NCBI GenBank assembly: GCA_964475745.1
Contig: CAYYXO010000002.1
Span: forward strand, 11,679-75,678
DNA length: 64,000 bases
Direction of reading: 5' to 3'
DNA from: an uncultured Candidatus Saccharibacteria bacterium
GTDB lineage: Bacteria; Patescibacteriota; Minisyncoccia; UBA6257; JAKLIH01
The notes below the pieces were generated by a model that was not told the DNA's origin, made no database searches, and worked only from the letters and a program-made list of their open reading frames with translations. Both the position numbers and the translations under genes were made by a program. Below are positions 16,854-39,638 of this stretch, piece after piece (the first letter of the stretch is position 1; each line of letters opens with the position of its first letter).

Positions 16854-18995
16854 ATGAAAATAAAAATAAATAAGGTTTCTAGCAAGGTAGATAAAAAAGA
16901 AGAAAAAGCTATAAAAACTAATTTAACTAAAAAAGAAGGAAAGCCAAAAAAAGAAGTGGTTTTAAAAAATGAGGAAGCTAAAGACAATGGCTATACAGCT
17001 GAAAGTATTCATGTGCTTGAAGGCTTAGACCCGGTAAGAAGAAGGCCAGGCATGTATATTGGTTCAACTGGTATTTCTGGTTTGCACCATTTGGTTTGAG
17101 AAGTTTTTGACAATGCCATTGATGAAGCTTTGGGTGGTTTTTGTGATAATATAAAAATTGAATTATTAGAAAATAATCGCGTTAGTATTTTTGATAATGG
17201 TAGAGGTATTCCAGTTGATGTTCATAAACAAACAAAAAAATCCGCTTTAGAAACTGTTTTGACGGTTTTGCATGCTGGTGGTAAATTTGGTGGAGGATCT
17301 TATAAAATTTCTGGCGGTTTGCACGGTGTGGGTGTGTCAGTGGTAAATGCTTTGTCTAGCTACTTAAAAGCAGAAGTATACCGAGAAGGTTTTATTTATT
17401 GCCAAGAATATAGCTGTGGCAAGCCGTTAACAGAGGTCAAAAAGACTCAAACAAAAGAAAAAATAATGCATGGCACTCGGATTACTTTTGAGCCAGATGC
17501 AACCATTATGCAAGAAATAAATGTAGATTGAAAAACCATTTTAGATCATGTTAGGGAGCAAGCTTATTTGGTTAGAAAAATAAAAATAGATATTTCGGAT
17601 AAAAGAGACCCTGAAAATCAAAATGACTATGTTTTTTATTTTGAAAATGGTATTGTTGCCTTTCTAAGTTATTTGATAAAAGACCACAATACAAGGTCAA
17701 TACAGAAAAATATCTTTTTTACTGAAGAGACTTCCAATGAAATAGAAGTTGAGATTGCTTTGAGCTATACCACAGAGATTGAAACTTCCGAGTTTGCTTT
17801 TGCCAATAATATTCATACTCCAGAAGGAGGCATGCATTTAACCGGCTTTAGAGCCGCCTTAACAAGAGTTTTAAATGATTATTTAAAAAAGAACTATCCA
17901 AAAGAAAATTTATCACTAACAGGAGAAGATGTAAGGGAAGGCTTGATGGCAATTATTGCTGTAAAATTAAAAGAGCCTCAGTTTGAAGGTCAAACAAAGT
18001 CAAAACTTGGCAATCCAGAAGCAAGAGCTGCTGTTGAGCAAGTTATGTCAAAAGCATTTAGAGATTATTTAGAAAAGAACCCAGATGATGTAAAAAGAAT
18101 TTTAGAAAAATGTTTAGTTTCAGCTAAGGCAAGATCTGCTGCAAAGCTAGCAAGAGAAAATGTTTTGAGGAAAAGTGTTATGGAAAACACCACTTTGCCA
18201 GGAAAATTAGCTGATTGTATTAGTCGTAAAGCAGAAAATTCTGAATTGTTCATTGTTGAGGGCGATAGCGCTGGCGGCTCGGCCAAACAAGGAAGAGACC
18301 GTCATACTCAAGCCATTTTGCCTTTGCGAGGAAAAATTTTAAATGTTGAAAAGGCTAGATTAGATAGAATGATGACTTCAGAAGAAATTAAAGCGGTTAT
18401 TTTAGCTTTGGGAACTTCAATTGCAGAAGATTTTAATTTGAGCAAATTGCGTTATCATAAAGTTGTTTTGATGACTGATGCTGATGTAGACGGTGCTCAT
18501 ATTAGAACATTGCTTTTAACATTGTTTTATAGATATTTCTTAGGAGTAGTAGAAGGTGGATTCTTGTATGTTGCTCAGCCACCTTTGTATCGTATTCAAA
18601 GAGGTAAAGATTTCAGATATGCTTATACTGAAGGAGAGAAAGAAAAAATGATAGATGAGCTATTAAAGATAAAAGAGGCTAAAAAAGAAGCAGGAGCTAA
18701 AAAAGAAGAAAAAAATGAAGAAGAATCTCCAGAAGAAGTAGCAGAAGAAGTTTCAGACGAAATGAAAAAATACAAGGGATTAATAATCCAAAGATATAAA
18801 GGTTTGGGAGAAATGAACCCAGAGCAATTATGAGAAACAACTATGGATCCTAAAACAAGAATATTAAAAAAGATTACTATTGATGATGCTAAAGAAGCAG
18901 ACCGTTTATTTGACATTTTGATGGGAGAGGAAAGAATGCCTCGTAAAAAGTTTATCCAAGTGCATGCTAAAAAAGTTAAAAACTTAGATGTATAA
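16854..18995 (+). CDS. gyrB: DNA gyrase subunit B (about 713 aa, 3 in-frame TGA)
   Basis: [19 protein letters not shown] in the GHKL ATPase domain, the Toprim segment [15 protein letters not shown], and the C-terminal [20 protein letters not shown], where TGA sits on the invariant Trp. No gyrA follows. Confidence 0.92.
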
Positions 18996-22277: not shown

Positions 22278-22529
22278 ATAAAACAGTTAACTAATATTAA
22301 AAGTTCATATTCTTATGAATAAAAGAGATTCAAAAAACAGTTTAAAATTCAGGTGGTAAAAACACAGAGTTTTTCTTTGTGATTATACCGCTTGTCAAAA
22401 GCGGTTTTTTAATTCTCTAATAGTATTGGTTGATCTTTGAAAAAAGAATAAGGGTAAAATGTATTTTCATTGGAAAATTAAATAAAAAACTTAATTGAAG
22501 TTTCTTCAATGCTTTAATTAAGATGAGGA

Positions 22530-25590
<3,061 letters not shown>

Positions 25591-25637
25591 TATTAAAGTA
25601 TATATTTTATTCCTTATTCTTTTCAAAAAATTAAATT

Positions 25638-25746
25638 GGGCTGGTGATTAATTGTGATATGTCCCACTCGTTTCCATTTCGAACACGATAGTGAAAGTAT
25701 CATGACTCGATAATACTCGCAAGGGGAAAGTAGAGTTTGCCAGCCC
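25638..25746 (+). rRNA. rrf: 5S ribosomal RNA
   Basis: Helix I GGGCTGG/CCAGCCC and the conserved internal CCCACTCGTTTCCATTTCGAACACGATAGT. It sits directly after 23S. Confidence 0.8.
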
Positions 25747-25860: not shown

Positions 25861-27177
25861 ATGTCAAAAAGATTTTTTAAACAAATAGTTGCTTCGTTTT
25901 TATCTTTGCTAGTTTTAGTTATAGTAGGATTTGGTTTTTCAAGATTATTTAAATCCAAGCCAGTTGTTTTTGATCCAAGAAAAGCAGAGATAGCTTCTTT
26001 AAATACTTTCCAATTTGAAAGTAACGCTTTTTGAATGACTCAAGGAGATCGTTATTTTGTTTATAGCCGAGTAACAAATCCAAATGATAATTGAGGAGCA
26101 AAGAGTTTTGACTTTGTTTTTGATTTTGTTCAGAGACAAGAAGAGCTAGAAAGATCCGTTAGAAAGATTTCTGGTAGAGACTATATTTTACCAAGACAGA
26201 CAAAATATATTTTAGCCTTTGTTGAAACTGCCAATCTTTCTTTTGACAGCATAAATTTTCAAGTCAATGACAGAAATGTTGACTGAGACAAACCTATGAG
26301 TGAAGAATTTTTAAACCCAAATTTATTTAGTATAACCAACATAAATCTAGCAACAGGTACAGGTCAAATTATTGCTCCAAGAGAACAAGAAAGCACTTTG
26401 TTTTATGAATTTAAAAAAGATTTAAAAATGGGAGACAAGAACGAAGATGTTTTTAATTTGCAATCTGTTTTAGCTCAAGATAGAGAAGTTTATCCAGAAG
26501 GGCAGATTCATGGAAGTTTTGATTTAGCAACTTACAAGGCAGTCATTAGATTTCAACATAAAAATGGCATCCATCCCCAAACAGGCATAGTGGATTATAA
26601 AACCAGAGAGATTTTAAACCAAATGTTTGGTGGGTCAAGAAGCGAAGCAATCCAAAGAGGCGGCTTTTCCTTTGATAGCAATTTACAATTTGGAGATGCT
26701 GGCTCTGAAGTAAGAGAATTACAAAGAGTTTTAGCACAAGATCCAACAGTTTATCCAGAAGCAAGAATTACCGGCAATTTTGACTATTTATTAAAGCGAG
26801 CTTTAGAGCGTTTTCAAGAAAAACATTCTTTGCGAATAACAGGCGAATTTGACACACCAACAAGAACAAAATTAAATTCAATTTTAACTTCTCAAGATGG
26901 TGCAGCTGAAATAGCTCCTGGCTTGACGGCAGAATTATCCTTTACAGTTTTTAATAATTCCAATACATCTTTTAGAGAAGTTGCTTTGGTTGGCTTTTTA
27001 TGTGATACTCAAAATAAAGTAGTTGCTGTTTCAAGAAATACTATTCAATTAATGTCTCAAAGGAACCAAAATGTTTCTTTTTCTTGAGTTCATAATCTAG
27101 GCGAAAATGTAAAAGTTTGTCCAAATGGGTTGCAAGCCTATACAAATGTTTTCGATGTCAATAATATTATAAGATAA
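25861..27177 (+). CDS. secreted/membrane-anchored protein with two peptidoglycan-binding (PG_binding_1-like) repeats (about 438 aa, several in-frame TGA)
   Basis: N-terminal TM segment and two repeats of LQxVLAQDxxVYPEgxIxGxFD...FQxK..(I/L)xxTG. The 25861 and 26296 segments are in one frame. Confidence 0.55.
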
Positions 27178-27178
27178 A

Positions 27179-28270
27179 ATGATGGTTTATTTAGTTAAGA
27201 ATTGAAAAATATTTGTAAGTGTTTTTTTGTTGACAACATTAAGTTTGCTTATTTTAGCAAGTTTAAGCATGAATCCAGTTGATAATTTAGATGCCTTTTA
27301 TAGGCAGCTAGTTTTTTTTGTGATAGCAACAGTTTTTCTAATATTTTTTGCAAAATTTGATTATAATTTGCTTAAAAATCATTCTTTTTTTATCCTAGGA
27401 AATTATTTTTTATGAAATTTTTCTTTGATATTGTTGTTAGTTTTATCTCCAGTTACAAGAGGTACTAATCGTTGGTTTGATCTAGGTTTTTTCAGTTTAC
27501 AGCCAGTTGAGTTTGTAAAATTAGCTTTGATTTTAGTACTAGTGAAGTTTTTATATCGACGCAATTTAGAAATTTGAAATTTAAAAAATATTATAATCAG
27601 TGGAATATTTTTAGGCATACCTTCGGTTTTGGTTTTGCTGCAACCAGACTTGGGCCCAGTAGTGGCAATGTTTTTAATTTGATTAATTTTACTTTTGGTT
27701 TGTGGGCTGAGGTTCAAGCATTTATTAATTATGATAGTGTCGGTTTCGTTGGTGGCTATAGTTGGTTTTAATTTTATACTTCACGATTATCAAAAAAATC
27801 GTTTAATTTCTTTTTTAAATCCAAACTTAGATCCCATGGGCTTAAATTATAATCAACTTCAGTCAATGATAACCATAGGGAGTGGTCGTTTTTGAGGCAA
27901 AGGTTTGGGTTGAGGAACTCAAACTCAATTACAATATTTGCCAGAAACAAAAACAGATTTTATTTTTGCTGCCATTTCAGAAGAACTGGGGTTTTTAGGT
28001 GGCACCATTATTTTAGGAAGTTTTTTGTTAATGTTTAGTTATTTTGCAGATGCTTTAACTATAGCAAAAAATAATTTTAGCAAGCTTATTATCATTGGTT
28101 TTGGAGTGAAAATATTTTTAGAAACAGTTATAAATATAGGCGTAAATGTTGGGTTTTTGCCTGTTGTGGGCACAGCATTGCCTTTTATAAGTGCTGGAGG
28201 ATCTCATTTAATTGTAGATTTTATTATGGTCGGTATAATTTTAAATATTGTTAATGGACGTAATTACTAA
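27179..28270 (+). CDS. SEDS-family peptidoglycan glycosyltransferase (RodA/FtsW-like; about 363 aa, 5 in-frame TGA)
   Basis: GSGRF-TGA-GKGLG-TGA-GTQTQLQYLPETKTDFIFAAISEELGFLGG is the SEDS signature. The ORF-track segments 27227, 27695 and 27938 are in one frame with the ATG at 27179. Confidence 0.8.
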
Positions 28271-28272
28271 TT

Positions 28273-29274
28273 ATGAAAAAAATAATTTTTGCTTTTGGTT
28301 TGCTTTTTGTTTTTAGTTTCGTTTATTTAAGTATTAATAAAAAAACTACTTTAGAAGAAAAGTATTTCATTGTTGAACCTAGGCAATCTTTTTTATCAAT
28401 AATTGATGATTTGCATAGCGAAGGAATAATTAAAAATAGATATTTTTTCAAAGTTTTTGTTTTTTTGAGAGGAAGTCATAGGGATTTTAAACCAGGCGAA
28501 TATTATTTTAATGGCAGTTATTCAATGAAAAATATTTTAGAAGAGCTAAAAAACAACAAAGGTATATCAGTAACCATAGTTGAAGGCTATAATATTTATC
28601 AAATAGAAAAATTGCTTTTAAAAAATGAAATACTTTCATCAAAAGGAGAGCTAGTAGATTTTCTAGTCAAAGATGTGGATCTGAAAAAATATCCTTTTTT
28701 AAGATATGTTCCACCAGAAAATAATCTAGAAGGATTTCTATATCCTAATACCTATTATTTTTTAAAAAATACTAGCATAGAAAGAGTGGTAGAAAACTTT
28801 TTAGATCATTTTAATGAAAATATTTATATATTAGTTAAAGATAAAATAGCTTTAGACGAGTTTTATTATAAGCTTATAAAGGCTTCTTTCTTGGAAAAAG
28901 AAATATATCATAAAGAAGATATGCCTTTAGCATTAAGCGTAATAAATAACCGTCTTGATATTGGTATGAGGTTGCAAATAGATGCTACTTTATGTTACCC
29001 AAAATTTATGTTACAATATGAAAAAGACCAGGTTTTAAGATGCAATCAGGTTTTAGCAAGCGATAAGCAGATGACATCAGAATATAACACTTATAGATAC
29101 GCTGGCTTAACCAGAACGCCAATATCAAATGTTAATTTTGAAACCTTTAAAACTGTTTTAGAAGAAATTACTTCAGATTATTTCTATTATATAACAACTC
29201 CTCAAGAAAAAGATACTGTTTTTGGTAAAACATTAGAAGAGCATAATCGCAATATACAAAAATATTTAAGATAA
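28273..29274 (+). CDS. mltG: endolytic murein transglycosylase MltG (YceG-like)
   Basis: N-terminal TM segment and a YceG domain with GYNIYQIEKLL and PENNLEGFLYPNTYYF, matching LEGYLFPDTY. Confidence 0.75.
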   Translation: MKKIIFAFGLLFVFSFVYLSINKKTTLEEKYFIVEPRQSFLSIIDDLHSEGIIKNRYFFKVFVFLRGSHRDFKPGEYYFNGSYSMKNILEELKNNKGISVTIVEGYNIYQIEKLLLKNEILSSKGELVDFLVKDVDLKKYPFLRYVPPENNLEGFLYPNTYYFLKNTSIERVVENFLDHFNENIYILVKDKIALDEFYYKLIKASFLEKEIYHKEDMPLALSVINNRLDIGMRLQIDATLCYPKFMLQYEKDQVLRCNQVLASDKQMTSEYNTYRYAGLTRTPISNVNFETFKTVLEEITSDYFYYITTPQEKDTVFGKTLEEHNRNIQKYLR

Positions 29275-30005: not shown

Positions 30006-30152
30006 ATAAAAGCAATACTTCAGTAGGAAGTGTTCTTTTAAACTTGAAAATTTAGATATACCACAACTAACAAATTCAAAGTTTTTTAGTTGCTCTAAAG
30101 GTTTATTTTTTTTGAATAAATTTTGTATATTTTATATACAGTTGTTTTTTTT

Positions 30153-31672
<1,520 letters not shown>

Positions 31673-31799
31673 TTTTAGGAATCTTTGTTTAATTTGATTC
31701 GTCAAATTAAACTATTCCAAGGTCGTCCCGAATATTTTTTAAATATTTTGGAACTTGTTAAACTAAACCTGCTGGAGCAACTAAAAAGTTTTGAATCAA

Positions 31800-31837: not shown

Positions 31838-31949
31838 GAAACGGTGTGTTGGCTTGCAAAATGACATCTTTTGTGGTAGAGTATCTATGTTTGAAATTTG
31901 CTGTTTAAAAGATGAAAAGGCCGGCGGGCATACGCAGGAGGAAATTTTT

Positions 31950-32426
31950 ATGAGTATTATTGATGATAGTTTGGTTCAGGAAGCGTTAGATTTATCTGGT
32001 CCGACAATTGAAACCATACTGAAAAACCCCAAGTCAACTTGGGGGCCAAAGTATGTCGAAGTTTTTATTATTGAGCGAGACGATGTTAGCGCATATACTG
32101 CCGTTATAGGAGAGAAAGAACCCTGGGATCCTTCCTGGGGAGAAGAGCTCGACTATGATTTTTTGTTTGTAGCAGAACAAAAGGCCAATGCTTCTCTTAG
32201 AGAAAAGGCGGACACGTCTTTTCTAATTGAGCAATCCCCATGGTTGCTTGAAGAAGGAGAATTTTTGTATCCCGGAGGCGTCTATTACGGCGGGGTTGCC
32301 GTTGGTGTTTCTGGAGCAAAAGGTATTGTCGATGAAGGAATAGCAAAAATCCTGATCAGTGCTATTGTTATGCTCGCAAAGCAGAAAACGCAAGAAAAGA
32401 TAAGAAATGATGATTACCAAGTGTAA
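31950..32426 (+). CDS. GlcG/DUF336 (heme-binding-like) family protein (about 158 aa), foreign-looking
   Basis: PGGVYYGGVAVGVSGAKGIVDEGIA matches the DUF336 GG..GAIGVSG...D..A signature. A canonical SD (CAGGAGGAAA) lies 7 nt before the ATG. All four Trp codons are TGG, it contains no TGA, and it is locally GC-richer. Confidence 0.55.
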   Translation: MSIIDDSLVQEALDLSGPTIETILKNPKSTWGPKYVEVFIIERDDVSAYTAVIGEKEPWDPSWGEELDYDFLFVAEQKANASLREKADTSFLIEQSPWLLEEGEFLYPGGVYYGGVAVGVSGAKGIVDEGIAKILISAIVMLAKQKTQEKIRNDDYQV

Positions 32427-32574: not shown

Positions 32575-32997
32575 ATGTATGAACTTTTTGAAAAATTATT
32601 AGAGGCCACCAAAAAGGGTCTTGTAAAATGGAAAAAAGTTGGAGAAAAAGTCGTTGTTCCAGGTTATACAGAAGGGTTTCAGCAATATGAAGCTATCATA
32701 GAAGAAAAACGAATAAAAACTTTTGTTCAGCTTAAGGCCGTTGTTAAAAAAAAGGGGTTATTTAATAAAAGAAGCGTCGAAGAGGCTAGTTGGGTGTTTG
32801 GTGTTTTTCTCAATGATTTTGCTCTTATAACCTCAAACGAAGAGGCTTTGAGGAGCGATATTATGGTAACGAGCTCCTTTCATGAGCTCAAAATGGTAGA
32901 TTTCTTTTATTCGCTAGAGGAGGCAGTTCGAGAAAAAGATCTACTCGAGTCCATTGACGCAGATCTTACTGAATTATTGTCCTTGTCGATTAAGTAA
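32575..32997 (+). CDS. hypothetical protein (140 aa), foreign-looking
   Basis: A perfect SD (TAGGAGGT) lies 8 nt upstream and an extended -10 (TGATATAAT) further upstream. It contains no TGA, and Trp is TGG. Confidence 0.4.
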   Translation: MYELFEKLLEATKKGLVKWKKVGEKVVVPGYTEGFQQYEAIIEEKRIKTFVQLKAVVKKKGLFNKRSVEEASWVFGVFLNDFALITSNEEALRSDIMVTSSFHELKMVDFFYSLEEAVREKDLLESIDADLTELLSLSIK

Positions 32998-33246: not shown

Positions 33247-34446
33247 ATGAAGTGGAAAATTATAAAAAATGATAATCCATATAAAGAATATTCTGATTTT
33301 GAATATTTGTGGGTTGATATTTTTTTAAGTAAAGGCTTATTATATAGACAAGATTTAGTTAAAATTTTAAAGCATTTTGACATAAATTTTGTTGAAAAAA
33401 ATTGAGAAGAAAATATTTCTTTAGGAGAAATGGGCACGGTGCTGCATGGAGATGTTAAAAAAGATGTGTTGTTGCCGTTTCTACAAAATTATATACATCA
33501 AAATTACCCAAAGATATTTGGCTTTGAAGAGGCAAGTAAAATATATAATGCTTTGATAAAAATAGACAGTCAGTTAAATATTATAAAACTTTGGTTTGCT
33601 TTTGAATGCGATAAATACGATAAAAATTTAAAAAGTTTTTTGGAAGAAAAACTCCTTGACTTGACAAAGGGAGCTAGAGTTAAAGATAATGCTGAAATTG
33701 GGTTAAGCGAAGAAAAAGATAATTATTGTCAATGATGTGTGGTTGATATATTAACTCAAATGTATAGATTATCTTTTATAAACGAAGACATCAAAAAAAA
33801 TTATTTTGAAGAAAATTATGATGAATTTCGTTATCAATGATTGATAATTATTTTATGCAGAGAATTATTGCCAAGAAAAGATATGTTGGCATTTTTAAAG
33901 CATTATGACATGCGGTTTTTTGGAATAAATTGAAAAAATAGAATTAAATTAGAAGAAATGGGTTGGGTAATTTTGCATGATGTTGAAGAAGATGATCTTT
34001 TTGATTTTTTGTCAAATTATTTAAAAGAAAAATATCCAAAACTTTTTTCTTTTGAGGAAGCATGTAAAATTTTTGACGCATTGTTTTATTTAAAAAATGA
34101 AATTCAAATTATGGAAGTGTGGTTAAATATGGCTGATGAATCTCCGTATGTTTCTTACATGAGAGAGCAACTCGATTATTTAAAAGAGCAAAGAGAAGGG
34201 GGGGTTTTTGACGAATCGCCAAGCATGGAAGAAAAAAGAAAAGAAACAGGTCTTTTTAGAAGAACAGCGCAAGATGTTATTTTGGCTTTGTATGAATTAG
34301 CCATGAAAAACTATTTTAAAAAGAAACAAAAGGCAAGTCCTAGTCATCTTTATGGCAATGAAAGCTCTAAAGGCCATGATGACTCGGCAGCGGTTAAATG
34401 CATGCAAGAATATCTATCAAGAAAAAAAGCTGAAAATGACTTTTAA
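33247..34446 (+). CDS. hypothetical protein with an internal tandem duplication of a roughly 130-aa domain (about 399 aa, 6 in-frame TGA)
   Basis: One frame runs from the ATG at 33247 through ORF segments 33430 and 33958. Unit 1 reads ...EEMGTVLHGDVKKDVLLPFLQNYIHQNYPKIFGFEEASKIYNALIKIDSQLNIIKLWF... Unit 2 reads ...EEMGWVILHDVEEDDLFDFLSNYLKEKYPKLFSFEEACKIFDALFYLKNEIQIMEVWL... The units are clearly homologous. A basic, Ser-rich C-terminal tail follows. Confidence 0.5.
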
Positions 34447-34606: not shown

Positions 34607-35317
34607 ATGGCAACAACAAAAAGGTATTTTTACTCAAATGAGTTTTATCATATTATTTTAAGAGGTATTGATGGAAAAACTTTGTTTTTAAACGACCAAG
34701 ACTATTTTAGAATGATCAATGGCATGTTTGTTTTTAATGATAAAGGGTTAATAGGTTCTTCTTTTCGACACAAAGGATGTCCAAATGATAGATTTGAAAG
34801 AAAAAGAAAAGGGCCTTTGGTAAATATACATGCTTTTTGCTTAATGCCAAATCACATTCATTTTTTGTTGGAACAAAAGGTTGAAGGGGGTCTGTCAAAA
34901 TTTATGTTAAAAATAGGAGCCGGCTATGCGGCTTTTTTTAATAATAAATATAAAAGAAAAGGCCATTTGTTTCAAAGCAGATTTAAGTCGGTTTTAATAA
35001 AAGATGATGATCAGTTGGCAGTAATTTTTTCTTATATCCATACAAATCCGGTTTCTATAATAGAACCTAATTGAAAGGAAAAGGGTATAAAAGATTTTAA
35101 AAAAGTTAGAAATTTTATTGAAACCTATAGGTGATCAAGTTATGCTGATTATTTAGGTAACAAAAATTTTCCAAATTTAACAAAAAGAAATTTTATGCTT
35201 CAAGATCAAAATCAACGCGCTTGAAGAAATTTCGTAGAAGACTGGCTAAAGTATAAGGCAGAGTTGTTTGAGCGTTTTTTTAAAGACAAAGGCAAAGATA
35301 GTTATTTATTGGAGTAA
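34607..35317 (+). CDS. IS200/IS605-family Y1 (HuH) transposase-like protein, RAYT/COG1943-like (about 236 aa, 3 in-frame TGA)
   Basis: HuH motif LMPNHIHFLL, the catalytic-Tyr region FSYIHTNPV, and C-terminal YR-TGA-SSYADY matching the WSSY box. It uses TGA for Trp, so it is host-adapted. No tnpB is adjacent. Confidence 0.7.
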
Positions 35318-35346
35318 AAATCTGAAAAAATTAAAAGCTAAAGAAA

Positions 35347-35375
35347 GAAAGGACGACCCCAGGGGTCGTCCTTTT
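35347..35375 (+). terminator. rho-independent terminator after the transposase-like gene
   Basis: Hairpin aggacgacccc-a-ggggtcgtcct followed by TTTTT. Confidence 0.65.
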
Positions 35376-35539
35376 TGAAAAAAGCAGCACTGTTTTGTCC
35401 ATTATAGCACTGGCGATGCTCATTGGGTGATTTTTCCAAAAAAGCTTCGCCTCTTTGTAAAGTTCACTATCGGTTATATCCATTTCGTCATCTTTTTTAA
35501 TGTTCTTTCGATAAAGTTGATTATATTATAGCCTTTTTT

Positions 35540-35790
35540 ATTAAATATGTCAACACCATGCTTAGCGAGTTAAATTTCAAAGCCCATCATGGTGTTGGCC
35601 ATCATTTCAGCTTAATCAATTACAACGTAGCAAGGCAACGTTGTATATTCTCCTTTGATTAATCAGGCCTAACGCTACCTGGTAACGGAGGGAGGGAGTG
35701 GTTTGTGGGGATATTTGGTGGTTGTTTTATATTACGTAGCGGGAGGGGATCTTGGTGTTATTTTAAATTATGCAATGCGAGTGGTTGTAT
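35540..35790. other. GC-richer structured non-coding element with inverted repeats and G-tracts
   Basis: Inverted repeats caacaccatg...catggtgttg (35551..35596) and tacaacgt...acgttgta (about 35618..35645). A G-tract cluster follows: GGAGGGAGGGAGTGG..GTGGGG...GCGGGAGGGG (35690..35745). It contains no ORF. Confidence 0.35.
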
Positions 35791-35841
35791 AAATGATATA
35801 AATATGCTAAAATTGATTTAAATAGCTTAATTGTATTATTT

Positions 35842-36783
35842 ATGAATGATATATCAAAAAAAAAGGAAGAGTTTCTTTTAAAAATTATGAGTTCAACAAA
35901 CGCTGATAAATTTAAAAGATATTTAGGAAGCCCATTGCGATATGCAGGAGGTAAAACATTGGCTGTCGGGTATATTGTAAAATTGTTGCCTAATAAAATA
36001 GATAGAGTTGTTTCGCCTTTTTTAGGGGGGGCTTCAGTTGAAATTGCCTTGGCAAAAGAGCTGGGACTTGAAGTTATCGGGTATGACATTTTTGACCTAC
36101 TGATAAATTATTGGAAGAACCAAATTAATAATCCTGAGCAGCTGTATCAGAATTTAAGAATATTGGCAAACACAAAAAATAAATATCAAGAGGTAAAAAA
36201 TATTTTAAAAAATATATGAAATAAAAATGATGGCCTGTTGAAAAATGATTTTTCTAGTTTAGAATTGGCAACTTATTATTATTTTAATCATAACTTAAGC
36301 TATGGACCTGGATTTTTGGGATGGATGTCGTCAAATTATTTAGATAATAAAAAATATGATTCAATGTTGAAAAAAGTTAAGAATTTTAAGGTTTGTAATT
36401 TTCATGTTCGTACATCAAGTTTTGAAGAAGCAATCCCGATGCATAAAAAAGATTTTTTATATTTGGACCCGCCTTATTATTTAGACGGAGACAGTAAAAT
36501 GTTTAAAGGGATATATCCAATGAGAAATTTTCCAATACATCACAATGGCTTCAACCACGAATTATTATTTAATTTGTTAAAAAATCATGATGGCGGTTTT
36601 ATTTTGTCATATAATGATTGCGAATGGGTAAGAAAAAAATATAAAAATTTTAAAATTATAGATATTGAATGGCAATATACAATGGGACAAGGGGAGACAA
36701 GAATAGGTAAAAACAGATTGTCAAGAAATTATGACAATAACAATGTAAAAAAATCTCATGAATTATTAATTATAAATTATTAA
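35842..36783 (+). CDS. Dam-family (D12-class) N6-adenine DNA methyltransferase (about 313 aa, 1 in-frame TGA)
   Basis: N-terminal SAM motif LRYAGGKTL (a Dam motif I-like FxGxG/YAGGK) and the catalytic motif IV LYLDPPYY (DPPY). The 35842 and 36238 segments are in one frame across the TGA at 36217. Confidence 0.8.
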
Positions 36784-36798
36784 ATATAAAATAGCGAT

Positions 36799-37398
36799 AT
36801 GTTAATTAAAAAAGTAAAAACAGCTTTTAAAATAGCAGACGTTGAGCTTGTAAAGAATACAACAAAATTAAAATTTAATTATTTGTCCACCATAAAAGAT
36901 GAAAATAATAAAATTTTACCAAAGGACATTCTTACTAAAAATTACGCAAGAGTTTATCTAATTGTTGTTGACGGAGAGATAAAAAAAATAGGGGCGTCGC
37001 AAGATAAGGGGGGAATGAAGGGGACGTTGAGTATTTATAAAGATGGTGGCGTAAAAGGAAGGCCAAGCATAAGAAGTTTCGGCATCTGGTATTTTTTGTA
37101 TCGTACTGCGATGCAAGGTAAAAAAATTGAGTTTTATATGATATATCATGACAATTTCAATTTTGAGATTAAGGGTTTGTTACAAACATATCAAACAACA
37201 TTAGCGAGCATAAGCTGTAAGCTTATTGAATATTATTGTGTTAAAGATTATTTGTCGATGGAAAACAATCATTATCCAGACTGGAATGTTCAAGAACAAG
37301 CAATGGATTGGCCAGAAGAGGTTAAAAGAGAACATTCTAGAATAACAGCAGGTAGTTTAAATAATAAATCTAAGAGAAAAAAAATGAAAATGGCATAA
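36799..37398 (+). CDS. hypothetical protein, possible PD-(D/E)xK nuclease partner of the MTase (199 aa)
   Basis: It lies directly downstream of the Dam-family MTase. LPKD-(15 aa)-VVDGEIKK fits a PD...(D/E)xK spacing. No other family was recognised. Confidence 0.35.
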   Translation: MLIKKVKTAFKIADVELVKNTTKLKFNYLSTIKDENNKILPKDILTKNYARVYLIVVDGEIKKIGASQDKGGMKGTLSIYKDGGVKGRPSIRSFGIWYFLYRTAMQGKKIEFYMIYHDNFNFEIKGLLQTYQTTLASISCKLIEYYCVKDYLSMENNHYPDWNVQEQAMDWPEEVKREHSRITAGSLNNKSKRKKMKMA

Positions 37399-37412
37399 CA
37401 ATAAATGATTTA

Positions 37413-37754
37413 ATGCCGTTTCTTAAAAGCGACCAAAATCCAAATGGATCTATAATTAGTTTGTCGGATTTGTATCTGTCTATTTGTTATGGCATGAGAT
37501 ATGAACCAGCAAGTGGTTATTGACTTTCTAACGCTGATTTTTATAGTTTTACCCCTGATACAGATAAAATAGGCAGTCAAATAAGGTATTATCTTCAAGT
37601 TCCAGATATTGAAGAAATTATGGAACCAATAGAGCCTGAAGATGAAGGCAATGAAGAGGAGGAGGAAGGGGATGGCGAAGAAGGGGATTTTGAGGAAGAA
37701 TTGTTGTACGAAGAAGGTGGCCTTGAGGAAGAAGAAAATGAAGAGACTGAATAA
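37413..37754 (+). CDS. small protein with an extremely acidic C-terminal tail (about 113 aa, 1 in-frame TGA)
   Basis: MPFLKSDQNPNGS...GYWLSNADFYSF...IEPEDEGNEEEEEGDGEEGDFEEELLYEEGGLEEEENEETE. About 35 of the last 45 residues are D or E. It is not in the ORF track because of its internal TGA. Confidence 0.4.
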
Positions 37755-37778
37755 AATAGTAAAAAAGATGAATTGTGA

Positions 37779-37812
37779 AAAACACTGGCTTTAAAAGCCA
37801 GTGTTTTTTTGT
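37779..37812 (+). terminator. rho-independent terminator
   Basis: Hairpin aaacactggctt-taaa-agccagtgttt followed by TTTTT. Confidence 0.65.
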
Positions 37813-37862
37813 TTTCTTTGAAATTATGCTATAATAGGAGCATATAAAGTTAATATTACATT

Positions 37863-38830
37863 ATGGACAATTGTCAAATAAAATTTTGTCAAAACAATAA
37901 GCTGATTAATAAGTTTTATTTTCTGGTTAATTTAGCTAAGGTGGCTAAGTGAAAAGATAAATCCATGGGGATTGATTTTTTTTCTGGCTATAAAATAAAT
38001 AAAATTTCTAAAAAGGAAATTGAAAAATTTAAGAAAATTTTCAAAAAAGTAGAATATTGAGATATAGAAAGAGTTTTTTACCAAGCTAACACTGAAGCAG
38101 GCGCTTTAAAAGGATTGTCAAAATATCTTGCAAAAAGTGATATATTGGAATTGAAAAAAATATTTAATTTTTTTGAAAAAGACTTTCTAACTCTTTATAA
38201 TAGTATTGATAAAAAACATAGCAAAGAATTAAAGGATCTATGAAAAAAGACTGAATACCAGAAGATTTTAAAAAAGCTGATTTATTTATTTGGAGACAAA
38301 AAGAAAAAATATAATCTAAAGGTAAAGATAGTATTTGAAAAAAACTTTGATGGTGTTTTTAGAGGCACAGTTTATGACGAAAATATTGTTTTGGAGGTGG
38401 CTGACTTAAAAGATAGATTTGATTTGTTGGAAAATATTATTTTTGTTTTGCTACATGAAATTACTCATGTATTTGTAAAAAGTAATGAGCTTATAAAATT
38501 TACAATAAATAAACTCGGCATTACTCGAAATACTGTTAATGTGATTAAAAAATATAATATTGATTTTGATAATTTTGCAGAAGAAATTTTGATCAGAATG
38601 TTTCTTACAAGAGGGTATTTTCGTGATAAAAACAAAGAACGTTTTTTAAATAATAAAAAAATAACTTGAAAACATGCAATAAATCAAAATCAAATACAAT
38701 TGCATTGTTTTAGTATGATGCTATATAAAAGTATGCATAAAGATGTTGAAAAATATGTTAAAAAAAACAAGAAAATTGACGATGAATTTTTATCAAAAAT
38801 GATAAAAATAATTAAAAGCAAGGTTAAATA
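37863..38830 (+). CDS. hypothetical HExxH-motif (putative zinc metallopeptidase-like) protein (about 322 aa, 3 in-frame TGA)
   Basis: LLHEITHVFV is an HExxH motif in a Lys-rich protein. It has an ImmA/IrrE- or SprT-like flavour, but the family is not identified. Confidence 0.45.
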
Positions 38831-38958
38831 AAAAGAGCGGAGAAGGCAATTTTTTTGGTTAAATTAGGCTAGTAAATGCTAGCTTTTTGAGGTATTGCAT
38901 AAAATTAAAATTGTTGATACATTGAGGTTGGCTTAATAAAAATTTTAAAAAATGTATC

Positions 38959-39573
38959 ATGATTTTATCTGACAAGGATATTAAAAAAGCCATTAAAGAT
39001 GGCGACTTGGTTTTTCGAGAGAAGCTTTCTTCTGAGCAGATTGAAGCAGCGTCAATTGATTTAAAATTGGGCCCAATTTTTAAAACTTTTAAGCATACTA
39101 GTGAGTCGTTATTGGATTTGAAAAAAGGAATTGACTTTGGTAAAATCATGAGCACAGAAGTGGTGGATAAAAAGAAGGGGTTTATTTTGCATCCAAATAG
39201 ATTTGTTTTGGTGAGCACAAAAGAATATATGAAGCTGTCAAACAAAGTGGCGGCAAGGGCAGAGGGCAAAAGTAGTTTAGCAAGAATGGGACTTTTGGTG
39301 CATACAGCTGGTTTTATTGATCCGGGATTTGAAGGAACAATTACTTTGGAAATAAGTAATCAGGCTGAAATTCCTATAGTGCTTTATCCTGATATGTATA
39401 TTTGTCAGATTGCTGTTGAATCTTTGTCTAGTCCATGTGAATTTTCATATAAAGAGAGAAAAAATCACTTTATCAAGACTCGGAAGGGCCAAAAGAGGCA
39501 AGTGCTCAAAACTTATTTAAGAAGAAAAAATAAAGATAAAAAAGCCAGGTTAACTTTTAACCTGGCTTTTTGA
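38959..39573 (+). CDS. dcd: dCTP deaminase
   Basis: 204 aa with a dUTPase-fold and AASIDLKLG...GFIDPGFEGTITLEISN typical of Dcd. Confidence 0.75.
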   Translation: MILSDKDIKKAIKDGDLVFREKLSSEQIEAASIDLKLGPIFKTFKHTSESLLDLKKGIDFGKIMSTEVVDKKKGFILHPNRFVLVSTKEYMKLSNKVAARAEGKSSLARMGLLVHTAGFIDPGFEGTITLEISNQAEIPIVLYPDMYICQIAVESLSSPCEFSYKERKNHFIKTRKGQKRQVLKTYLRRKNKDKKARLTFNLAF

Positions 39574-39638
39574 TGCTTGCTTTTTATTTTTTTATCTGTT
39601 AAAATATTTTTATATTAATAGTAATAAATTTTATTATT

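Follow-up and report, generated by a model that had tools for sequence, protein, structure and literature searches.

A 64,000-nt stretch of contig CAYYXO010000002.1, from an uncultured Candidatus Saccharibacteria bacterium, was analysed as a whole and is called the window here. Two adjacent genes within it, encoding a DNA methyltransferase (MTase) and, in the next open reading frame (ORF2), a nuclease, very probably form a mobile two-gene, Type IIP-like restriction-modification (R-M) cassette of the HpyAORF481P type, to which the genes that follow, ORF3 and ORF4, are unrelated. This reading is carried by family membership, fold, conserved residues, genetic linkage, cassette boundaries and codon bias. 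Judged from its sequence, the pair is an ordinary Type II R-M system, of a family that has been catalogued since 2008 and is biochemically uncharacterised. The initial annotation of the region had taken all four genes for a restriction-modification/defence module, in a combination said to match no described system. Its view of the MTase and ORF2 as a Type II R-M pair was supported, but the pair does belong to a described family, and ORF3 and ORF4 appear to be unrelated, lineage-specific neighbours.

ORFs in the window were called with TGA read through. Under the standard bacterial code the region is fragmented (the MTase, for example, is split into 125-aa and 181-aa pieces); with TGA read through, the four ORFs that had been annotated are present where they were placed, clean and all on the + strand (Table 1). 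TGA encodes Trp in this host: in alignments it falls on an invariant Trp of the MTase (KNIWNK), on a Trp that is conserved universally in GyrB (NPEQLWETTMDP) and on one in FtsW/RodA. The GyrB gene (16854-18995) shows QLWETTMDP when TGA is read in this way. The MTase stop and the ORF2 start are 15 nt apart, the close spacing remarked on earlier, and 14 nt separate ORF2 from the start of ORF3. The terminator previously proposed between ORF3 and ORF4 corresponds to a strong hairpin, the sole + strand terminator-like site in 35375-38989. Because the gap after ORF2 is so short and holds no terminator, ORF3 is probably co-transcribed with the cassette, and we infer that the MTase, ORF2 and ORF3 are probably carried on one transcript ending at 37809.

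Table 1. Features of the cassette region, with positions numbered from the first base of the window
Feature	Position	Strand	Length	Description
MTase	35842-36783	+	313 aa	Predicted alpha-class (D12/Dam-family) N6-adenine DNA methyltransferase, orthologous to M.HpyAORF481P (HP0481)
ORF2	36799-37398	+	199 aa	Predicted GIY-YIG Type II restriction endonuclease, R.HpyAORF481P branch of the R.Hpy188I family
ORF3	37413-37754	+	113 aa	Orphan with acidic tail, outside the conserved cassette
ORF4	37863-38831	+	322 aa	Separate gene, putative zinc metallopeptidase
Terminator-like hairpin	37777-37809	+		15-bp stem followed by a T run, between ORF3 and ORF4
Upstream leader	35786-35841	+		Conserved; left edge of the apparently horizontally transferred unit

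The MTase is predicted to be an alpha-class (D12) N6-adenine methyltransferase. It matched the Pfam D12 family (PF02086) with an expectation value (E) of 4e-35 and a score of 122 bits against a cut-off of 22, over residues 34-281 and model positions 1-253 of 253, and the PADLOC profile MTase_II PDLC03281 matched its whole length (E = 1.5e-113). The D12-class motifs YAGGK and DPPYY, on which the earlier assignment had been based, are present. In the alpha-class order of motifs, an FxGxG-like AdoMet-binding motif precedes the target-recognition region and the catalytic (D/N)PP(Y/F) motif comes last; this order is seen in SPFLGGAS (about residues 58-65) and DPPYY (about residues 217-221), each of which is kept in all seven aligned homologues. 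The protein is 56% identical to its orthologue in Helicobacter pylori HUP-B14 (E = 2e-120), and its start codon is backed by an alignment with six homologues.

ORF2 had been read as a PD-(D/E)xK endonuclease with no recognisable restriction endonuclease family; a nuclease is still predicted, but with a different fold. There was no match to ORF2 in Pfam or NCBIfam. It matched PHROG 1111, 'endonuclease' (E = 7e-12), and 571 homologues were found at 60-80% identity, several of which, in Campylobacter and Helicobacter, are named 'type II restriction endonuclease'. When 23 of the homologues were combined into a profile, it matched R.Hpy188I (PDB 3OQG) with E = 0.0013 and 19% identity, and in this alignment Y53, K63, Y80 and E144 of ORF2, which are invariant across the 23 sequences, lie opposite the active-site residues Y63, K73, Y88 and E149 of Hpy188I. 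All 53 positions that are invariant in the family are kept in ORF2. Structure prediction, which was run for ORF2 and ORF4, gave ORF2 the GIY-YIG nuclease fold, as a single 199-aa domain without the extra DNA-binding domain of homing endonucleases. Comparison of ORF2 with other proteins gave values of 11.9 for T4 EndoII, 8.1 for R.Hpy188I, 5.6 for the N-terminal domain of UvrC, 4.7 for R.Eco29kI and 3.9 for I-TevI. The PD-(D/E)xK reading is ruled out by residue conservation as well as by fold, K42, D43 and E60 of the supposed 'PKD...DGEIKK' arrangement being variable even among close homologues.

The closest named relatives of ORF2 place it in a recognised family after all. It is 63% identical to the nuclease of H. 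pylori HUP-B14 (E = 2e-87), which is encoded between typA and a 5-methylcytosine (m5C) MTase plus a catalase-like gene. This position we take, from the gene order of strain 26695, to be the HP0480-HP0485 locus, with the nuclease in the position of HP0482. The C. upsaliensis homologues are 64% identical to ORF2, and the cyanophage S-PM2 protein p241 is 35% identical (E = 1e-18). The R.Hpy188I family was split by Kaminska et al. 2008 (PMC2630997) into an Hpy188I branch and an R.HpyAORF481P branch, the latter containing H. pylori 26695 HP0482, its orthologues in J99 (Hpy99ORF433P) and HPAG1, C. upsaliensis CupORF237P and a member from S-PM2, of which p241 is the named protein. Enzymes of this branch have Lys in place of the Tyr of YIG, have lost the orthodox Arg84 and use an Arg from a nearby loop instead, and lack the Cys90/Cys101 pair, and their partner MTases are of the alpha class (PF02086) (PMC2630997). 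ORF2 is assigned to this R.HpyAORF481P branch. It has an invariant Thr76 at the position of the orthodox Arg84 of Hpy188I, near-invariant R88 and R92 in the following loop, and no Cys in the alignment at the positions of Hpy188I C90 and C101. H. pylori HUP-B14 (L048, 3069-6207) carries the orthologous pair followed directly by a second R-M-like unit, an m5C MTase and a 148-aa ORF, which fits the published remark that systems of the R.HpyAORF481P branch are often nested with other R-M systems.

The two genes travel together. Across all 91 loci that are not from this organism, the MTase is present in 89, and in 86 it lies directly upstream of the nuclease on the same strand. A scan of species-representative genomes yielded 80 loci, in Helicobacter, Campylobacter, Bacteroidota, Chlorobiota, Gammaproteobacteria, Rickettsiales, Elusimicrobia, Saccharibacteria, other Patescibacteria, Sericytochromatia, Mycoplasmoidaceae and Woese-/Huberarchaeota. 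Seven genomes were examined singly and the neighbours of the pair were wholly different in each; in C. lari the pair stands between gyrB and the urease genes, in a Rickettsiales metagenome-assembled genome (MAG) it is flanked by murG and ccmF, in a Patescibacteria MAG it follows the gene gap, in Raineya it adjoins isocitrate dehydrogenase, and the three remaining genomes show yet other contexts.

The edges of the conserved unit are sharp. Nucleotide homology to the window (71-83%) is limited to ∼35785-37410. In the closest relative, locus L015 (83%), homology starts near 35785-35786, ∼57 nt upstream of the MTase ATG, and ends at the ORF2 stop codon. Bases 35786-37398 are thus predicted to be a compact mobile two-gene R-M cassette. 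The leader shared with L015 includes a TGnTAAAAT-like element, and TGCTAAAAT (35805-35813) is a candidate extended −10 element with, we infer, a promoter role; this 9-mer is not over-represented in the window. The gene for an IS200-like Y1 transposase (34607-35317) lies just upstream of the cassette. We considered as a target-site duplication a 25-nt direct repeat of 80% identity (35752-35776 and 37808-37832) that brackets the MTase, ORF2, ORF3 and the terminator, and which, if real, would mean that ORF3 had arrived with the cassette. A ranking of 45 comparable AT-rich repeats within 4.5 kb places it only 14th, and it was treated as a chance match.

Codon usage sets the pair apart from its host. 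The window ORFs outside the cassette encode Trp with 110 TGA and 54 TGG codons, against 1 TGA and 7 TGG in the cassette (binomial P = 0.0024 against the host ratio). The MTase accounts for the single TGA (Trp126) and four of the TGG codons, and ORF2 for the other three. ORF3 (1 TGA, 0 TGG) and ORF4 (4 TGA, 0 TGG) are host-like. The initial annotation had held that all four genes use TGA as Trp and are therefore resident. With no TGA in ORF2 and a single one in the MTase, the premise is incorrect, and the significant TGG richness of the cassette reverses the argument for the R-M pair, leaving it in agreement with the codon usage of ORF3 and ORF4. The pair looks to have been acquired horizontally, and fairly recently, with the direction of transfer read from this bias. 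L015 (310-1866), which also uses TGA as Trp, has already converted six of its eight cassette Trp codons to TGA, compared with one of eight in the window.

Other copies of the cassette appear under further codes. P0106, a homologue of ORF2, has Trp at the conserved Gly columns G71, G75 and G126 and at the mostly-Gly column 168, which suggests a source with TGA as Gly (code 25) that was translated with the wrong table. The same cassette apparently occurs in hosts with three codes, namely the standard code, TGA as Trp (the window and L015) and TGA as Gly (P0106), and its copies differ in the extent of TGG-to-TGA conversion. Together they offer a small natural example of code reassignment meeting horizontal transfer: the ORF2 gene, as found here, would be readable in any host, while a recipient with the standard code would read the MTase gene in truncated form.

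Enzymatic activity, dimeric cleavage and a palindromic target are expected for the pair by analogy with R.Hpy188I and from the general biology of Type II R-M systems. The alpha-class MTase would methylate adenine at N6 in a short, probably palindromic target. ORF2 would probably act as a homodimer, like R.Hpy188I, with an active site in which E144 holds one metal ion and Y53, K63 and Y80 take part. By cutting the same target when it is unmethylated, the nuclease would restrict incoming DNA and make the cassette addictive. The recipient would have been a bacterium of low GC content, with a cell wall and with TGA as a Trp codon, to whose codon usage the cassette would have barely adapted.

Four points weigh against this reading. 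The relocated catalytic Arg of ORF2 may be either R88 or R92. No published recognition sequence or demonstrated cleavage for the HpyAORF481P branch was found in the literature searched. A methylome study of strains 26695 and J99 mentions neither HP0481 nor jhp0433 in its text or supplements and attributes no detected motif to them, so that the H. pylori copies may be silent. Finally, the position of ORF3, 14 nt after ORF2 and ahead of a common terminator, makes a functional link formally possible. CGRAT, a motif of 26695 that has no assigned enzyme, was considered as the target of HP0481, and no link to HP0481 was found. Site avoidance in the 64-kb window, calculated as Markov-model observed/expected ratios for every 4- and 6-bp palindrome and for XXN(1-2)XX sites, showed no outlier and only a mild general depletion of palindromes.

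The alternative that survives best, though we consider it unlikely, is that of a decayed or silent R-M remnant, in which the genes look intact and the nuclease or the MTase is inactive or unexpressed in this host. It would account for the missing motif assignments of the 26695 and J99 orthologues and for the lack of recognisable palindrome avoidance in the window, and it is in keeping with a 2008 array paper, where HP0479, a gene nearby, is listed as non-functional and HP0483 appears as a pseudogene. However, both ORFs are full length and free of frameshifts, the invariant positions of ORF2 are complete and the MTase retains its S-adenosylmethionine-binding and DPPY motifs. The change of the Trp126 codon from TGG to TGA, which is readable only in this host, also speaks against decay, and the 60-80% identity kept between phyla points to purifying selection acting on the family. 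It is very unlikely that ORF2 is instead a T4 EndoII-like or homing-type GIY-YIG nuclease, acting in DNA degradation or its own mobility with the MTase as a self-protecting or orphan partner, as the single-domain nuclease lacks the homing-type addition, the directly preceding cognate-type MTase in 86 of the 91 loci is a hallmark of an R-M pair, and the cyanophage copies, too, adjoin or pair with a Dam-like MTase (PMC2630997 Table 1).

In ORF3 a neutral N-terminal part, residues 1-64, is followed by an acidic tail of low complexity that makes up residues 65-113; for the protein as a whole, the predicted isoelectric point is 4.05 and the net charge −31. The tail had been described as almost all Asp and Glu; it is indeed acidic, but these make up only 29 of its 49 residues (59%). 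The sole match to ORF3 among 5.8 billion proteins was ORF3 itself, and nothing was found in Pfam, NCBIfam, PADLOC, PHROGs, the PDB or phage records. It is probably a real gene because its in-frame codon usage is host-like (a score of 0.36 for the N-terminal part, compared with 0.45±0.15 for host genes). The suggestion that it is an anti-restriction protein of the Ocr/ArdA kind was not borne out, as it resembles neither Ocr nor ArdA, nor any other known protein, in sequence and is absent from the 91 R-M loci. ORF3 resembles Ocr (T7 gp0.3) and ArdA in being small and very acidic, but the concentration of its charge in a low-complexity C-terminal tail argues against a DNA-mimic surface of their type. 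Ocr and ArdA display their acidic residues on folded surfaces, and they are encoded by invading phages or plasmids, against Type I systems, not downstream of a chromosomal Type II pair. We regard it as highly improbable that ORF3 is a newly recruited, lineage-specific modulator of the imported nuclease, either DNA-mimicking or a nuclease-binding 'antitoxin'. Were this so, ORF3 would temper restriction where the cassette is without a C-protein, and a de novo regulator would have been joined to a mobile R-M cassette.

ORF4 is a putative zinc metallopeptidase from a rare, uncharacterised zincin/gluzincin-like family. The HExxH motif reported for it is confirmed as HEITH at residues 198-202, and H198, E199, H202 and E241 are invariant in the family (HExxH…E). 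The conserved HExxH, the conserved downstream Glu as third ligand and the predicted zincin fold are those of a zincin of the gluzincin type. The family is very rare, with 18 representatives, and no Pfam or NCBIfam family scored above threshold. ORF4 was compared with the Wss1/SprT-like (WLM) minimal proteases and with M1 aminopeptidase catalytic domains; the SprT/Wss1-like similarity is weak, and the helical N-terminal half of ORF4 (∼140 residues) is without an assigned match, unlike these named zincins. Relatives of ORF4 on L016 and L097 have no R-M neighbours (a search with a 4-sequence alignment added one locus only), and on L097 the gene lies between those for a Thr-rich secreted-like protein and a PIF1/RecD-like helicase.

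Conserved co-occurrence of the four genes, which had been put forward as a check of the proposed module, was found for the MTase-nuclease pair and not for all four. Homologues of ORF3 and ORF4 were found in none of the 91 other pair-carrying loci. Among the 83 loci with enough downstream sequence, none has an acidic ORF after the nuclease gene, and in only one does an HExxH ORF 200 aa or more in length lie within 2.5 kb. A module in which the nuclease is regulated by ORF3, as a DNA mimic or anti-restriction-like protein, and ORF4 works with the R-M pair as a metalloprotease effector or regulator could draw on the closeness and shared strand of the genes, on the place of ORF3 before the only terminator, on its strong acidity and coding appearance, and on the faint likeness of ORF4 to SprT/Wss1, a family of DNA-protein-crosslink proteases. 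It is nonetheless extremely unlikely, and is largely refuted by the co-occurrence data: besides the counts above, DNA homology stops with ORF2, ORF4 stands behind the terminator and has relatives away from R-M genes, and ORF3 owes its acidity to a low-complexity tail. ORF3 and ORF4 are probably lineage-specific genes without a demonstrable functional link to the pair, ORF3 sharing its transcript by position only.

The surroundings of the cassette in the window have several features of their own. The host sequence is of ∼30% GC with a strongly positive GC skew, and 48 of the 50 long ORFs are on the + strand. ERZ27252299, JGI 3300033173 and SRR10872661 hold identical contigs. Peptidoglycan-related genes at 25861-29274 encode a PG_binding_1 protein, FtsW/RodA and YceG/MltG, by which a wall-less (Mollicute) host is ruled out. 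The order of the rRNA genes is unusual, with 23S-5S (22522-25745) upstream of 16S (30151-31676) on one strand; the ∼4.4 kb between them contains four protein-coding genes, those for a PG-binding protein, FtsW/RodA, YceG and RecR. Just downstream of the 16S gene, ORFs 31854-32426 and 32575-32997 have GC contents of 0.41 and 0.36 against ∼0.30, encode Trp by TGG only (6 TGG, 0 TGA) and have no Pfam match. They may be another foreign segment, and the region 31.8-37.4 kb, which besides these two ORFs takes in the R-M cassette and the IS200-like gene, may represent an acquired island. A 399-aa protein encoded at 33247-34446 has an internal duplication and no significant family match; each half carries '…EEMG(T/W)V(L/I)LH(G)DV…FL(Q/S)NY(I/L)…YPK(I/L)F(G/S)FEEA(S/C)KI(Y/F)(N/D)AL…'.

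Between the IS200-like gene and the cassette, the − strand carries a perfect sigma-70 consensus (TTGACA-17-TATAAT, 12/12) at 35553-35525, which faces an ORF of 50 aa (35483-35331) and a GC-rich hairpin that forms a bidirectional terminator (35348-35374). The segment 35331-35553 (− strand) could be a small gene or a small RNA. An Rfam scan of 35250-35900 for non-coding RNA gave only sub-threshold matches, on the terminator hairpin. From this hairpin to the MTase start the sequence includes a G-rich tract (GGAGGGAGGGAGTGG…). On the far side of ORF4, the dcd (dCTP deaminase) gene at 38959-39618 has a TGA at codon 205, which when read as Trp would add 15 more, mostly hydrophobic, residues up to the TAA at 39618; the last 50 residues of the product are unusually basic.

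For the biology of defence systems very little is changed by the pair, which is one more copy of a widespread cassette. Conservation of the family is very high: across phyla, archaea and cyanophages, proteins are 60-80% and DNA is 71-83% identical. Because of this conservation, and since the literature searched holds no recognition sequence for the branch, any intact copy is a reasonable candidate for a new GIY-YIG specificity.

Three known systems bear comparison with the pair. Phage T4 endonuclease II is a nicking enzyme of the phage that degrades host DNA and has no methyltransferase partner. Relative to this enzyme (DenA; PDB 2WSH), ORF2 is longer by ∼50 residues at its N terminus and has an MTase as its obligate neighbour. 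The likeness of ORF2 to R.Hpy188I (TCN^GA; PDB 3OQG/3OR3) is at the profile level only, the phosphate-binding Arg is probably relocated in ORF2, and the partner MTase is of the alpha class here and of the gamma class in M.Hpy188I; thus the specificity of Hpy188I is not transferable to ORF2. The HpyAORF481P system shares with the pair an alpha-class PF02086 MTase directly upstream of a ∼200-aa GIY-YIG nuclease, in which Lys stands for the Tyr of 'YIG' and both the orthodox Arg and the Cys pair are missing. Unlike the H. pylori copy, the cassette described here resides in a host that reads TGA as Trp, with one Trp codon of the MTase already TGA, and in place of a second R-M system it has an IS200-like gene and an orphan acidic ORF beside it.

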